The position numbers were made by a program, and so were the translations under genes. This document shows, piece after piece, positions 12,050 to 37,739 of a stretch of DNA of 48,110 nt; position 1 is the stretch's first letter, and each line of letters opens with the position of its first letter. Below the pieces are notes generated by a model, which did no database searches, was not told the DNA's origin, and worked only from the letters and a program-made list of their open reading frames with translations. The DNA lies in contig MFIU01000001.1 in NCBI GenBank assembly GCA_001778985.1, forward strand, positions 1 through 48,110, given 5' to 3'. Source of the DNA: Candidatus Giovannonibacteria bacterium RIFOXYD1_FULL_48_21. GTDB lineage: Bacteria; Patescibacteriota; Minisyncoccia; JACPKW01; UBA11713.

Positions 12050-12340
12050 ATGAGTTTGGAATTAATCATCGGCAGAATCACCACTCTTTTAAATTCGGTC
12101 CTGCCGATTTTGTTTTTGCTCGCCACCGTTGTTTTTCTCTGGGGCGTGATTTTATACATCACGGCCGGCGGCGATGAAGAAAAAAGAAAAGAGGGCCGAA
12201 ATTACATTATCTATGGTTTAATTGGTCTTTTCGTGATGGTAGCGGTTTGGGGAATCGTGAACGTTATGATTGGATTTTTCTTCCCGGGCGGTGCGCCCAT
12301 CACTCCTCCCCCCATACCTATAATTCCAGGCACCCCTTGA
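12050..12340 (+). CDS. VirB2/TrbC-like (CPR) pilin
   Basis: FLWGVILYITAGGDEEKRKEGRNYIIYGLIGL; Pro-rich tail. Confidence 0.8.
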   Translation: MSLELIIGRITTLLNSVLPILFLLATVVFLWGVILYITAGGDEEKRKEGRNYIIYGLIGLFVMVAVWGIVNVMIGFFFPGGAPITPPPIPIIPGTP

Positions 12341-12424
12341 AAAATTTTCTGAAATTCTCTCTCGGTTTTATCGCCATTTTAGTTCTGGCTTTGGCGATTT
12401 TTTACGCTCTGCAGTATCTTCAAG

Positions 12425-12465
12425 CTTGAAGTGTTTACACTGAGCGAGCGTAGCGAGCCGAAGTG
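12425..12465. repeat. REP-like element (ACTGAGCG...CGAAGTG family) abutting a tRNA 3' end
   Basis: First 25 nt identical to 38065-38089; related copies at 12859-12883 and 36816-36835. Confidence 0.75.
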
Positions 12466-12507
12466 TGCGGGTAGGCGGAATTGAACCGCCGTCTCGTCCT
12501 TGGCAAG

Positions 12508-12726
12508 TCCCGCAAATTCTTGCGAGCAAAGCGAGTAATTGAATTTGCGAGGATCCCGTGATAATGAACGGAACAATTGATTATGTGTTTGAATTAAACA
12601 GTGCGAGCGGCGGGAGTTGAACCCGCGCCATCTGCTTGGCAAGCAGACGTACTGCCACTATACTACGCTCGCAAGAAAAACGGGATCCTCGAAAAATATA
12701 TTCGCTCCGCTCATTATTTTTCGGGA
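12508..12726. mobile_element. Composite insert: two inverted hairpin repeats (12508-12559, 12680-12726) flanking a tRNA-Gly
   Basis: Each arm reads CGGGATCCTCG-stem-(T/C)TCGCTnnGCTC-stem-CGGGA; the arms are inverted; a third copy lies at 36885-36931. Confidence 0.75.
12602..12672 (-). tRNA. tRNA-Gly(GCC), nested inside the interrupted tRNA-Gly
   Basis: Complete cloverleaf GCGAGCG...TCTGC TT GCC AA GCAGA...GCGGG TTCAACT CCCGC CGCTCGC A. Confidence 0.95.
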
Positions 12727-12768
12727 GACCATTCTGCCACTAAACCATACCCGCCTTTTTTAATTTTT

Positions 12769-12855
12769 TGGTGCCGAGGGGGAGATTTGAACTCCCATGT
12801 CCTTTCGGACGCTAGCTCCTAAAGCTAGTGTGTCTGCCAGTTCCACCACCTCGGC
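12769..12855 (-). tRNA. tRNA-Leu(TAG)
   Basis: CTAGC TT TAG GA GCTAG; long variable arm; encoded CCA. Confidence 0.95.
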
Positions 12856-12883
12856 GAATGTTTACGCTGAGCCAGTCGAAGTG

Positions 12884-30287: not shown

Positions 30288-30324
30288 ACTTTTATCCTAC
30301 ATCAGCCTAAAAAGAGGTCAAATG

Positions 30325-30409
30325 TGCGCGGGAGAGGACTTGCACCTCCACGTCCTTGCGGACACCAGCCCCTCAAGCTGGCCTGTCTTCTAAGTTTCAG
30401 CACCCGCGC
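30325..30409 (-). tRNA. tRNA-Leu(GAG), atypical D and T loops
   Basis: CCAGC TT GAG GG GCTGG; long variable arm; T-loop TGCAAGT; D-loop AG instead of GG. Confidence 0.85.
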
Positions 30410-36004: not shown

Positions 36005-36463
36005 ATGCCAAAAGACACTCGTTCTTTTTTTGAAAAATTAACCGGCTCGGTGAAACTTAATCGAGAGCCGGAAGAAAATAACGAAACGACTCTGGCGAAA
36101 GCTTCCAAAAACACCTGGCTCGAAGCTGGCGAAGAAGGAGAGCTCACGGTGGATGTCTTTCAAACTCCGGACGAGATTATAATTCAGTCCACGGTCGCCG
36201 GAGTAAAGCCGGACGAACTTGACCTCTCTATCACTCAAGACATGGTGACTTTAAAGGGCCGGCGGCAGAAAAGCCATGAGATTTCCGAAAAAGACTATTT
36301 CTACAAAGAATTATACTGGGGTGCGTTTTCGCGAAGCATTCTCCTGCCGCAGGAAGTGGACGCGGACGCGGCTCAAGCAACTATGAAAAACGGACTTCTC
36401 ACTATCCGTCTTCCCAAGCTCGACAAAACCAAGACCCAGCGGCTCAAAGTGAAACTGGAATAG
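36005..36463 (+). CDS. Hsp20/alpha-crystallin small heat-shock protein
   Basis: VDVFQT, WGAFSRSI.LP, NGLL.I.LPK. Confidence 0.9.
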   Translation: MPKDTRSFFEKLTGSVKLNREPEENNETTLAKASKNTWLEAGEEGELTVDVFQTPDEIIIQSTVAGVKPDELDLSITQDMVTLKGRRQKSHEISEKDYFYKELYWGAFSRSILLPQEVDADAAQATMKNGLLTIRLPKLDKTKTQRLKVKLE

Positions 36464-36477
36464 AGGCGAATAAAAAA

Positions 36478-36506
36478 ACAAAACCTCGGCCAACGGTCGG
36501 GGCTTT
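36478..36506. terminator. Bidirectional terminator
   Basis: AAACCTCGGCC AAC GGTCGGGGCTTT between convergent genes. Confidence 0.6.
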
Positions 36507-36508
36507 GC

Positions 36509-36658
36509 TTATTTTCTCAAAAATCTTCGCTTCACGTGTTCAAACATATCCCCACCATTCAGCAACAACAATATAACAATGATTGCAAACCCGATGAGAA
36601 GTTTGGCTGAAAGATCGAGATTGTCGAGCGAAGATAAATCGAGCTGCGGAAAATTCAT
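36509..36658 (-). CDS. 49-aa single-TM small protein (not in the ORF track)
   Basis: MNFPQLDLSSLDNLDLSAKLLIGFAIIVILLLLNGGDMFEHVKRRFLRK*; GGGAGG SD. Confidence 0.55.
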   Translation of the reverse strand: MNFPQLDLSSLDNLDLSAKLLIGFAIIVILLLLNGGDMFEHVKRRFLRK

Positions 36659-36787
36659 CTCTTCGCCTCCCTTCGTACAACAAATCTACGTAGAGCCTAG
36701 CAATGTAAAATTAAAGTTGCAAGATGTGGATAAATTTGTGCAGTATTCTTGAATTAGTCCGAACGCATTTCGGGAAAGAAATCCCCC

Positions 36788-36931
36788 CGCGAAAATTCGG
36801 AAAGGCGGCGGCTTGTACTGAGCGAAGTCGAAGTGAGCCGCACCGCTGACAATTTTCCCGCCACATATTTAAAATTTTAGAAAGCGGGATCCTCGATTTT
36901 GCAAATTCGCTTCGCTCATGCAAAATCGGGA
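36788..36931. repeat. Cluster of nested palindromic REP-like elements
   Basis: ACTGAGCGAAGTCGAAGTG inside GCGGCT/AGCCGC and GAAAATT/AATTTTC stems; CGGGATCCTCG-family hairpin at 36885-36931. Confidence 0.7.
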
Positions 36932-36947
36932 CAAGTTTTTCTTTGGC

Positions 36948-37739
36948 TTATTGTATTATCTTTGACCTTTTTCTTCCAGTAAATATTCCAATTAATACTC
37001 CGACGAATGGAGGAAAAACAAATATCACAAAGAATATAATCCAGTATGGGATTACCACCCCCAACGAGTAAGCTAAGCGCACTCTAAGTTCATCAGCAAC
37101 GGCCCCGATGGTTCTAATATCAAAAATCTTTTTGTACTCATCTTGTAATCTTGGCGCAGGGGGTATTTCGCCGCGCTTTAAGAATTCCGCCTGTCGGTAA
37201 TCAGATAACACCGCTGACTCTGCGCATATAGCATCAACGAACTCTGATTGGGTAAATATTTTTACAGACGTCTCTGGATCCTTGCAATATCCTTTAACAT
37301 CGTTTTCACATTGTGCCTCCGAGCCATACGAAAGATTTAATCCGATCGTGTAACTTTCGCACGCAGAGCTAGTTCTCGATCCTAATAAATAAGGATCCGT
37401 CTTTAGTTCTGTGATGCTCTTAGTAGCACATTTGTCTTTGAGGATTTTAACTCTGTTGTAATAAAACTCTTCCTGAGATTTTTGGTATTTACTAAAATCC
37501 GTGAATCTATTCAGACTATTTCTGCTCATGGTTTCAATAGCGCAATCATAAGGGGACCCGCTATTATCTTTGCACTTTTTACACTCAAGAAATGTTTTAT
37601 ATAATGGAACATTTTGATCATACTGAGCCAAGGCGTAATCGTGTTGTCGTGGCGCATAGGAAAATAAGAAATAGGCGGCGTAAATGCCGATAGAAAATAG
37701 TATGCCGAAGAAGAAACTAATTGTTATATTCTTCTTCAT
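36948..37739 (-). CDS. Hypothetical membrane protein with a Cys-rich extracellular region
   Basis: 263-aa AT-rich ORF with N- and C-terminal TM segments. Confidence 0.7.
   Translation of the reverse strand: MKKNITISFFFGILFSIGIYAAYFLFSYAPRQHDYALAQYDQNVPLYKTFLECKKCKDNSGSPYDCAIETMSRNSLNRFTDFSKYQKSQEEFYYNRVKILKDKCATKSITELKTDPYLLGSRTSSACESYTIGLNLSYGSEAQCENDVKGYCKDPETSVKIFTQSEFVDAICAESAVLSDYRQAEFLKRGEIPPAPRLQDEYKKIFDIRTIGAVADELRVRLAYSLGVVIPYWIIFFVIFVFPPFVGVLIGIFTGRKRSKIIQ

Follow-up and report, generated by a model that had tools for sequence, protein, structure and literature searches.

Introduction

The element reported here has its closest described counterparts among bacterial repeats and transposons with hairpin ends. 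It is a 219-bp insert that carries a complete tRNA-Gly(GCC) gene and lies within a second tRNA-Gly(GCC) gene of Candidatus Giovannonibacteria bacterium RIFOXYD1_FULL_48_21 (assembly GCA_001778985.1), in a stretch of 48,110 nucleotides (contig MFIU01000001.1, positions 1 to 48,110) that is referred to as a whole as the window. Bacterial MITEs (miniature inverted-repeat transposable elements), repetitive extragenic palindromic (REP) sequences and REPINs are mobilized in trans by REP-associated tyrosine transposases (RAYTs). IS200/IS605 and IS91 elements, which use HUH enzymes, insert 3' of a short motif (CTTG or GTTC for IS91) without target duplication and have end hairpins; in IS200/IS605 the left and right ends are distinct and lie on the same strand. 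Integrative elements that target tRNA genes, such as phages and integrative conjugative elements, rebuild the 3' end of the gene they enter, and Rickettsia palindromic elements (RPEs) are palindromic repeats found inserted in coding genes as well as RNA genes.

Like MITEs and REPs or REPINs, the element described here is small, non-coding and multi-copy, consists of an inverted hairpin doublet without an internal transposase, and occurs in a genome with Y1_Tnp/RAYT-like open reading frames (ORFs). It comprises 219 nt without coding sequence, has inverted ends of 47 to 52 nt, contains two of the three copies of its hairpin module in its own genome, and belongs to a family found in 58 of 151 genomes of the class. 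Unlike them, it carries a tRNA, sits in the cognate tRNA gene and has no RAYT gene flanked by modules, and target-site duplication of the MITE kind was seen neither at its own junctions nor at the joint between a filled and an empty allele in two relatives (G007 and G008, below). With IS200/IS605 and IS91 it shares the end hairpins, the lack of target duplication and insertion 3' of short motifs (CTTC, CTTG, TTTG and GTC), as expected for an IS200/IS605-derived or REP-like element; it differs from them in that its ends are inverted copies and no transposase is linked to it. As with integrative elements, a tRNA gene is targeted and the damage is offset by carried sequence, but here a separate complete tRNA replaces the whole gene, the element has 219 bp and no integrase, and the former gene survives as two separated pieces. 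RPEs are likewise short palindromic repeats of a reduced genome that are tolerated inside genes, including RNA genes, but they lack a gene cargo and do not take the place of their target. What sets the present element apart from its MITE/REP, IS200/IS605 and IS91 relatives is a presumably functional tRNA cargo residing in the very gene that the cargo can replace.

Two kinds of disrupted tRNA genes also invite comparison. Group I introns occur in the anticodon loops of bacterial tRNAs (bioRxiv 10.1101/2020.01.27.920355); they resemble the present case in being inserts of about 200 nt in or near the anticodon loop with intron-less alleles in relatives. The present insert differs from them in that it lacks a group I core, breaks a stem and contains a whole tRNA, and in that the outer genes decay. 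In archaea, introns of the bulge-helix-bulge (BHB) type, split and tri-split tRNAs, and mobile tRNA introns of Thermoproteales have been described (PMC10714607, citing Fujishima et al. 2009, 2010). The likeness lies in a tRNA-Gly broken at a non-canonical site, complementary sequences at the break and an insert that looks like a mobile element; with a bacterial host, no EndA, no BHB and a complete tRNA in the insert, the resemblance is one of appearance only. Archaeal split tRNAs, rRNA-gene introns of these bacteria and bacterial tRNA group I introns form the nearest literature; full-text searches brought up no paper on a bacterial tRNA within a tRNA or on a bacterial hairpin element that carries a tRNA.

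Our preferred interpretation, to which we assign a probability of roughly 0.8, is that the resident tRNA-Gly(GCC) gene was cut by a non-autonomous, MITE/REP-like element of 219 bp carrying a replacement tRNA. The element most likely replaces the broken gene.

Architecture of the interrupted locus

Contig C1, whose first 48 kb make up the window, belongs to a 714-kb genome that is represented by five contigs and rated 100% complete. Genes for a tmRNA and for a bacterial RNase P RNA of type A (C4:116409-116820) mark the host as a small-genome bacterium. The sequencing runs that hold the stretch are labeled as groundwater and soil metagenomes.

A preliminary description of this DNA had proposed that a whole tRNA-Gly(GCC) gene lies nested within a split one with the same anticodon, and that layout and its coordinates were confirmed throughout. 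Read along the minus strand, the 5' part of the outer tRNA (12754-12727) is followed by the insert (12726-12508) and the 3' part (12507-12466). The features are as follows.

12727 to 12754, minus strand: 5' part of the outer tRNA-Gly(GCC), 28 nt, with acceptor strand GCGGGTA, the D arm and the GTC of the anticodon stem
12508 to 12726, minus strand: insert of 219 nt with ends TCCCG...CGGGA and without target-site duplication, delimited by sequence and repeats; a sister element has an exact empty site in G008
12680 to 12726, minus strand: end module A of the insert (73.8 bits, E 3.9e-16; covariation; DNA fold)
12602 to 12672, minus strand: inner (cargo) tRNA-Gly(GCC) (Rfam tRNA, 72.7 bits; ARAGORN)
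12560 to 12601, minus strand: spacer of 42 nt between the cargo tRNA and module B, delimited by sequence
12508 to 12559, plus strand: end module B, an inverted copy that reads TCCCG...GGATCCCGT on the plus strand (53.5 bits, E 6.4e-11; DNA fold)
12466 to 12507, minus strand: 3' part of the outer tRNA-Gly(GCC), 42 nt, with C31, the loop TTGCCAA and GGACG, then the variable loop, T arm, TACCCGC and discriminator A
12769 to 12855, minus strand: tRNA-Leu(TAG), 14 nt upstream of the outer gene (ARAGORN; synteny with G015)
36856 to 36931, minus strand: second, cargo-less member of the family, 76 nt, with one hairpin module (59.9 bits; DNA fold)

The two outer parts had been considered true partners, and their acceptor strands (GCGGGTA/TACCCGC) are indeed complementary. 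The ends of the insert, TCCCG and CGGGA, are likewise mutually complementary, and the inner gene is bracketed, as first described, by the exact 12-nt pair CGAGGATCCCGT/ACGGGATCCTCG, which belongs to an inverted repeat of 23 nt (I1). Two hairpins within the insert (I9 and I10) have all nine of their nine stem positions paired, and the two ends of the insert are inverted copies, about 47 to 52 nt long, of one hairpin module. The break falls between tRNA positions 30 and 31, after GTC, in the anticodon stem, so that its characterization as non-canonical holds. Neither a reading of the junctions nor the exact-deletion comparison revealed a target duplication.

Exhaustive in-silico rejoining of the outer halves returned an ARAGORN tRNA in 494 of 1600 cut combinations and is too lenient to place the break; exact-end deletion of the insert was used in its place. 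With the insert removed exactly, the outer halves score as a single tRNA-Gly(gcc) of 71 nt in ARAGORN, the only program applied to the rejoined gene. The anticodon stem is one nucleotide short, as predicted, with G.G at its top (the 27-43 pair), compared with C-G at 27-43 in the intact 72-nt orthologue of G004. Two points of the preliminary description were modified. The "split" gene is a broken gene, but one disrupted by insertion rather than a functional split or spliced tRNA, and most of its sister outer genes are decayed; the "hairpin repeats" are real and can be read further as the two ends of a mobile repeat family, which had not been recognized.

Contigs from four runs of four studies span the junctions with 0 differences, none of them flagged as a possible source. 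These are X10 (12300-12686 and 12693-12797), X12 (12478-12682 and 12691-12797), X15 (12535-12779) and X17 (12352-12578 and 12608-12767). Two of these runs also contain contigs in which 12507 is connected to 12730 or 12737 through 4 or 11 other letters; they represent Gly(GCC) genes without an insert, from other organisms sampled alongside. Exact matching of metagenome contigs yielded no further copies of this GCC insertion, and none of the 60 loci (0/60) with the exact 18-nt right junction had an upstream tRNA or module. A search of genome contigs for the two 9-nt arms spaced 100 to 130 nt apart gave, among the matches listed, mostly chance matches, and the inspected loci L112, L140 and L163 are other palindromes without a tRNA.

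Resident and cargo tRNA genes

The outer gene is, to judge from its relatives and its surroundings, the resident, syntenic Gly(GCC) gene of the lineage. In a search of 60 relatives, its two parts matched neighboring blocks separated by 4 nt in eight genomes (G004, G009, G005, G015, G054, G058, G029 and G023), and ARAGORN calls intact Gly(gcc) genes in the relatives so matched. The uninterrupted alleles sought in sister genomes, including G004 and G015, thus exist. The 5' part matches at query positions 27-51 in the intact genes of all eight genomes, and the 3' part matches G004 at query positions 274-341, downstream flank included, with 82% identity. The rejoined outer gene is 88.9% identical to the gene of G004, 83.8% to that of G015, 83.6% to that of G024 and 72% to the inner gene. 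Furthermore, the order Leu(TAG)-Gly(GCC) is common to this locus and G015, in which the Gly gene is intact.

The inner gene was called by ARAGORN at 12601-12672 and by Rfam (RF00005) at 12602-12672, where its 72.7 bits (gathering score 29) are the best tRNA score in the window. According to ARAGORN it is the only Gly(GCC) tRNA in the 714-kb genome. It differs from the outer gene in all stems (72% identity), which bears out the view that it is not a duplicate of that gene. Its closest matches are free Gly(CCC) tRNAs (84.7% for G006 and G057, 83 to 85% with G009 included), followed by cargo Gly(TCC) tRNAs (82.4% for G014, and about 82% for G007). Its acceptor stem (GCGAGCG/CGCTCGC) and anticodon stem (TCTGC/GCAGA) are the same as those of the G014 cargo, and the loops of these two tRNAs differ at positions 32 and 34. 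By these affinities the inner gene is foreign to the outer lineage.

Filled and empty alleles in relatives

The genomes G007 and G008, which belong to the same genus, provide direct evidence of gain or loss at the DNA level. G007 has a 210-nt sister element with ends TCCCG...CGGGA that carries a tRNA-Gly(TCC) and lies inside a tRNA-Gly(TCC) at CTTC^CAA. In G008, the counterparts of query positions 1-192 (93% identical) abut those of positions 403-499, leaving the tRNA without interruption; exactly the 210 nt are absent, and the joint is blunt, with no duplicated target bases.

Among the loci retrieved for the top-scoring module hits, sixteen elements carrying a tRNA were examined, and all 16 lie within the remnants of a tRNA gene. 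Both junctions are recognizable in 13, namely the present locus, G007, G014, G085, G082, G067:C8, G141:C17, G110:C28, G086:751k, G141:C39, G141:C3, G122 and G067:C6. In every one of these (13/13) the anticodon of the cargo equals the anticodon rebuilt from the flanks, with the anticodons of decayed outer genes read by eye from printed flanks; Gly-TCC accounts for five, Gly-CCC for three, Gly-GCC for one, and Ala-TGC and Ser-GCT for two each. The remaining three elements, and G140, offer one flank each, which is compatible with such a match.

The elements were inserted directly 3' of TTC or TTG. TCC and TGC loops are split between positions 35 and 36, CCC and GCT loops between 34 and 35. Other insertions interrupt a T loop or follow a TTG of a D loop, and an exception is a D-arm insertion after CAG (L046). 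The insertion in the window is atypical in that it follows GTC, four bases upstream of the TTG of the loop.

Most outer genes of the sister cases are, as far as their sequences tell, decayed relics. Exact deletion of the element gave a tRNA callable by ARAGORN in 4 of the 16 cases (the present locus, G007, G014 and G086), plus one flawed call (G141:C17). The outer 3' part is lost in G054, G122 and G086:588k, the outer stems are non-complementary in G141:C3, G141:C17, G082 and G085, and second insertions of the same family are found in the D arm or T loop at G067:C8, G110:C28 and G067:C6. The outer gene in the window is clean except for one lost base, which suggests a recent event and a young relic.

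At two Ser(GCT)-in-Ser(GCT) loci of one genus, in G086 (L022:1150-1650) and G141 (L024:1400-1900), the 3' portions (variable region and T arm) have changed places between the inner and the outer gene from one genome to the other, which indicates recombination or gene conversion within the nested pair. The cargo of G007 combines the body of the resident TCC tRNA of G014 and G141 with an acceptor stem of the cargo type. The Ser elements of G086 and G141 have a single hairpin module, and the acceptor stem of their cargo is extended by a 7-bp stem.

The hairpin module family

Read outwards, the module opens with TCC-CG and a 9-bp stem; a loop of 16 nt leads to the returning strand of the stem, after which come GAGGA and the tail TCCCGT. 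Within the loop lies a mini-stem of two pairs closed by three bases (here GCGGAGC; most copies have GCGAAGC). Across eight copies from five genomes, 94.8% of cells are paired and double changes occur in 9 of 12 pairs, with 0 of 500 shuffles as good and 28 to 68% paired in slid controls. The stems of modules A and B differ, yet each hairpin is internally perfect, and thus it is the hairpin that is conserved, not merely the complementarity between the two ends.

A covariance model was built from eight module sequences, end modules A and B among them. It detected three strong copies in the genome, the two insert ends and 36884-36931. Among the 151 class genomes sampled, 58 contained the module at E<=0.01 and 43 at E<=1e-4 (our own count), with up to 38 copies in G067. 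In a sample spanning the phylum, 4 of 151 genomes contained it at E<=1e-4, the present genome included. Rfam has no family for the module. Cargo-less members reside in intergenic DNA, and the same modules occur outside tRNA genes.

The cargo-less element at 36856-36931 consists of the module followed by a TCCCGC tail that pairs with the end GCGGGA, and it is inserted at CTTG^AAAT. It lies in a non-coding stretch (36640-36945, minus strand), preceded by GCCAAAGAAAAACTTG and followed by AAATTGTCAGCGGTGCG... up to ...TTCGGAC.AATTCAAG. These flanks are kept, with an element at the same place, in G046 and G150 of two other families (L045:1200-1640 and L050:1400-1840). The stretch may be a structured RNA gene of an unrecognized kind; Rfam gave nothing convincing at 36350-37000, and RNase P RNA was rejected as the host, that RNA being encoded at C4:116409-116820.

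A sub-family of modules (TCCACAAAAA...GTAGGATGCCGC plus a GC hairpin) is found directly 3' of the discriminator base of tRNA genes, with CCA on its far side, which looks as though the module had entered between the discriminator and an encoded CCA. The loci are L069:474-520, L040:1501-1547, L035:231-277 and L068:434-480; the hosts are Ala-GGC (L069 and L035) and Ala-CGC (L040), and ARAGORN made no call in L068. In G033 (L046:1460-1560) a cargo-less element lies in a 5' fragment of a tRNA-Met, about 70 nt upstream of an intact tRNA-Met. An internal 11-nt string of this element, TGCCAAGGACG, is identical to the start of the 3' part of the outer Gly(GCC) gene described here, which suggests that the element can capture flanking target sequence when it moves.

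Candidate mobilizing enzyme

A hairpin-recognizing Y1 single-strand transposase (IS200- or REP-associated) is the leading, weakly supported candidate for the mobilizing enzyme, as hairpin ends, blunt joint and motif-adjacent insertion recall the HUH single-strand transposases. The 714-kb genome contains four Y1_Tnp ORFs of 215 to 229 amino acids, whose top-scoring NCBIfam model is that of the REP-associated tyrosine transposase, with scores below the cut-off. Y1_Tnp was found in 44 of 58 module-bearing genomes and in 50 of the 93 other genomes of the class (odds ratio 2.7, Fisher p 0.009), an association that is overstated because related genomes are not independent. No autonomous partner with the same ends was found beside the Y1 genes, the search for transposases having covered the Y1 and Y2 families. 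Y2_Tnp had no match in five genomes, a result of little weight as the control search was silent too.

The four Y1_Tnp (IS200/RAYT-like) ORFs are located at L071:885-1574, L072:757-1422, L073:754-1443 and L074:827-1474, on contigs C2 and C1 but not within the window. Two of them are bracketed on both sides by a gene-specific palindrome, such as TGTTGAACATT/AATGTTCAACA at both ends of the L071 ORF, and look like separate small hairpin-transposase units.

Proposed mechanism

The comparisons show a non-coding element with hairpin ends and exact termini that is present in some genomes and absent from others in the DNA itself, and that inserts bluntly 3' of a short T-rich motif, often in a tRNA loop. 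The element can hold a tRNA between two modules, and the target gene is left to decay. The further steps are proposed. At the present locus, transcription of the cargo tRNA would run together with that of the Cys-Leu-Leu tRNA cluster, and RNase P and RNase Z would free it, with the modules, which are predicted to pair around the cargo, possibly serving as a processing stem. The outer halves would be discarded, and the outer gene is probably dead. The cargo would now supply the GCC glycine tRNA of the cell; as it is the only such tRNA, the element would be fixed and its loss would need precise excision.

An insertion into a single-copy tRNA gene would survive only if the element brings an equivalent tRNA or becomes one by one or two base changes. 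The match between cargo and target anticodons is thus most simply explained by selection, that is, survivorship, helped by changes of one or two anticodon bases within the glycine family. A stronger version, in which a selfish hairpin family homes to the anticodon region of tRNA genes and its replacement cargo tracks the anticodon of the gene destroyed, with addiction and possibly cargo-guided targeting, and in which one cargo lineage with the acceptor strand GCGAGCG is seen with TCC, CCC and GCC anticodons, each in the matching gene, is offered here only tentatively and is itself rather doubtful.

Several observations weigh against insertion of a mobile element with replacement cargo. No cargo-bearing copy was found outside a cognate tRNA gene (0/16), although free transposition should land elsewhere; survivorship does not wholly account for this, and the spread may instead reflect homologous recombination via tRNA flanks, or targeting. 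Among the loci examined, 30 of 64 modules are near tRNAs (our own count), a share that is biased upward because these loci are the best hits of a model trained on tRNA-associated copies. With regard to the enzyme, no module lies beside the four Y1_Tnp genes, whose own palindromes differ; no Y1_Tnp was seen in 14 module-bearing genomes; and the ends of the element are inverted copies, unlike the same-strand ends of IS200/IS605. Finally, the genome encodes the ligase RtcB, and by our reading the outer gene in the window is nearly intact, with a single base missing, its other stems perfect and its conserved bases kept. Its product could conceivably be functional after removal of the insert from the RNA.

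Alternative explanations

The alternative that survives best is that the cassette was not transposed as a unit but arose rarely and spread by homologous recombination via the tRNA halves or flanks, similar to intron homing without an endonuclease, with the cargo-less modules alone being mobile. It would account for the confinement of all 16 cargo-bearing elements to cognate tRNA genes while cargo-less ones are scattered, and both the exchange of inner and outer 3' portions at the Ser(GCT) loci of G086 and G141 and the composite cargo of G007 fit recombination between nested copies. However, the site in the window (positions 30/31 of a GCC gene) is unlike that of every other case and its cargo is closest to TCC and CCC cargos, so that a new insertion and an anticodon change are needed rather than a simple allele replacement. 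Moreover, the ends are exact and of the same kind as those of the cargo-less copies. We regard this explanation as unlikely, albeit one to be taken seriously.

It is considerably less probable that the insert is an RNA-level intron, in which the modules would align the outer halves, RNase P/Z or RNase III would cut, and RtcB would join, yielding two tRNA-Gly(GCC) per locus. The insert ends TCCCG and CGGGA do pair beside the break, the 289-nt transcript is predicted to fold far better than shuffled sequences (-112.8 kcal/mol, z -6.4, 0 of 200 shuffles as good), the outer genes of this locus, G007 and G014 are clean after exact removal, and RtcB is encoded (543 bits). As RtcB is also present in the bacterial control genomes, it is no argument for splicing. 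Inspection revealed no BHB at the junctions, which both abut the 5-bp TCCCG/CGGGA helix, with a single strand of 8 to 9 nt on the 3' side. EndA (PF01974) had 0 matches in this 100%-complete genome, in a search whose control was positive in four archaea. A group I core (RF00028) was detected at 12466-12754 neither in a search of that interval (E<=10) nor in a whole-genome search (E<=1), while a true group I intron in another tRNA of the genome was readily detected (83.5 bits).

The sister cases also argue against splicing. The insert positions vary (30/31, 34/35, 35/36, D loop and T loop), 12 of the 16 outer genes give no tRNA, several of them lacking the 3' part or having second insertions, and the same modules are found outside any tRNA. 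The rejoined outer gene of the window has a defective anticodon stem, and splicing of the outer gene would not force the cargo anticodon to match.

An assembly artefact, or a chimera of the tRNA-Gly genes of two strains, has a negligible chance of being correct: although the assembly is of the metagenome type, tRNA genes are repeats and many contigs of other organisms match the tRNA parts, contigs without any mismatch, drawn from four runs of four studies, span each junction, and the same architecture is found in independent genomes.

Other tRNA features of the genome

The outer tRNA-Gly(GCC) adjoins a Cys-Leu-Leu tRNA cluster, 14 nt downstream of tRNA-Leu(TAG). The outer tRNA-Gly and tRNA-Leu(TAA) have a similar trailer motif (CACTTCG..CT..GCTCAG.GTAAACA), at 12432-12462 and 12853-12875, which also occurs 3' of the intact Gly(GCC) gene of G004; it is possibly a shared signal for tRNA 3' processing or a shared spacer. 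Elsewhere in the window, ARAGORN called a tRNA-Leu(gag) at 30324-30409 (minus strand) whose D-arm region looks unusual, and the Rfam tRNA model found nothing there even at E<=10.

The group I intron mentioned above, 555 nt long, interrupts a tRNA gene at C4:37769-38398 (RF00028, C4:38118-38350). To the eye it appears to contain a reading frame similar to HNH endonucleases. ARAGORN called the interrupted tRNA Thr(tgt); our own reading of its loop, CTGT|TAA, gives Asn(GTT), and Asn is the one amino acid whose tRNA ARAGORN otherwise misses in this genome.

Implications

tRNA-finding programs report the inner gene only and miss the relic, and "missing" or "odd" tRNAs in such genomes may be similar cases. 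With its 219 bp, exact ends, and filled and empty alleles, the element is a compact system in which to find the enzyme that mobilizes hairpin repeats in these uncultured bacteria. If the proposed interpretation is correct, a tiny mobile element would turn over tRNA genes in reduced genomes, breaking and substituting them in one event. It would persist by holding an essential tRNA, which is undescribed for a non-autonomous element, and would open a way for tRNAs to be replaced horizontally and to switch anticodons.

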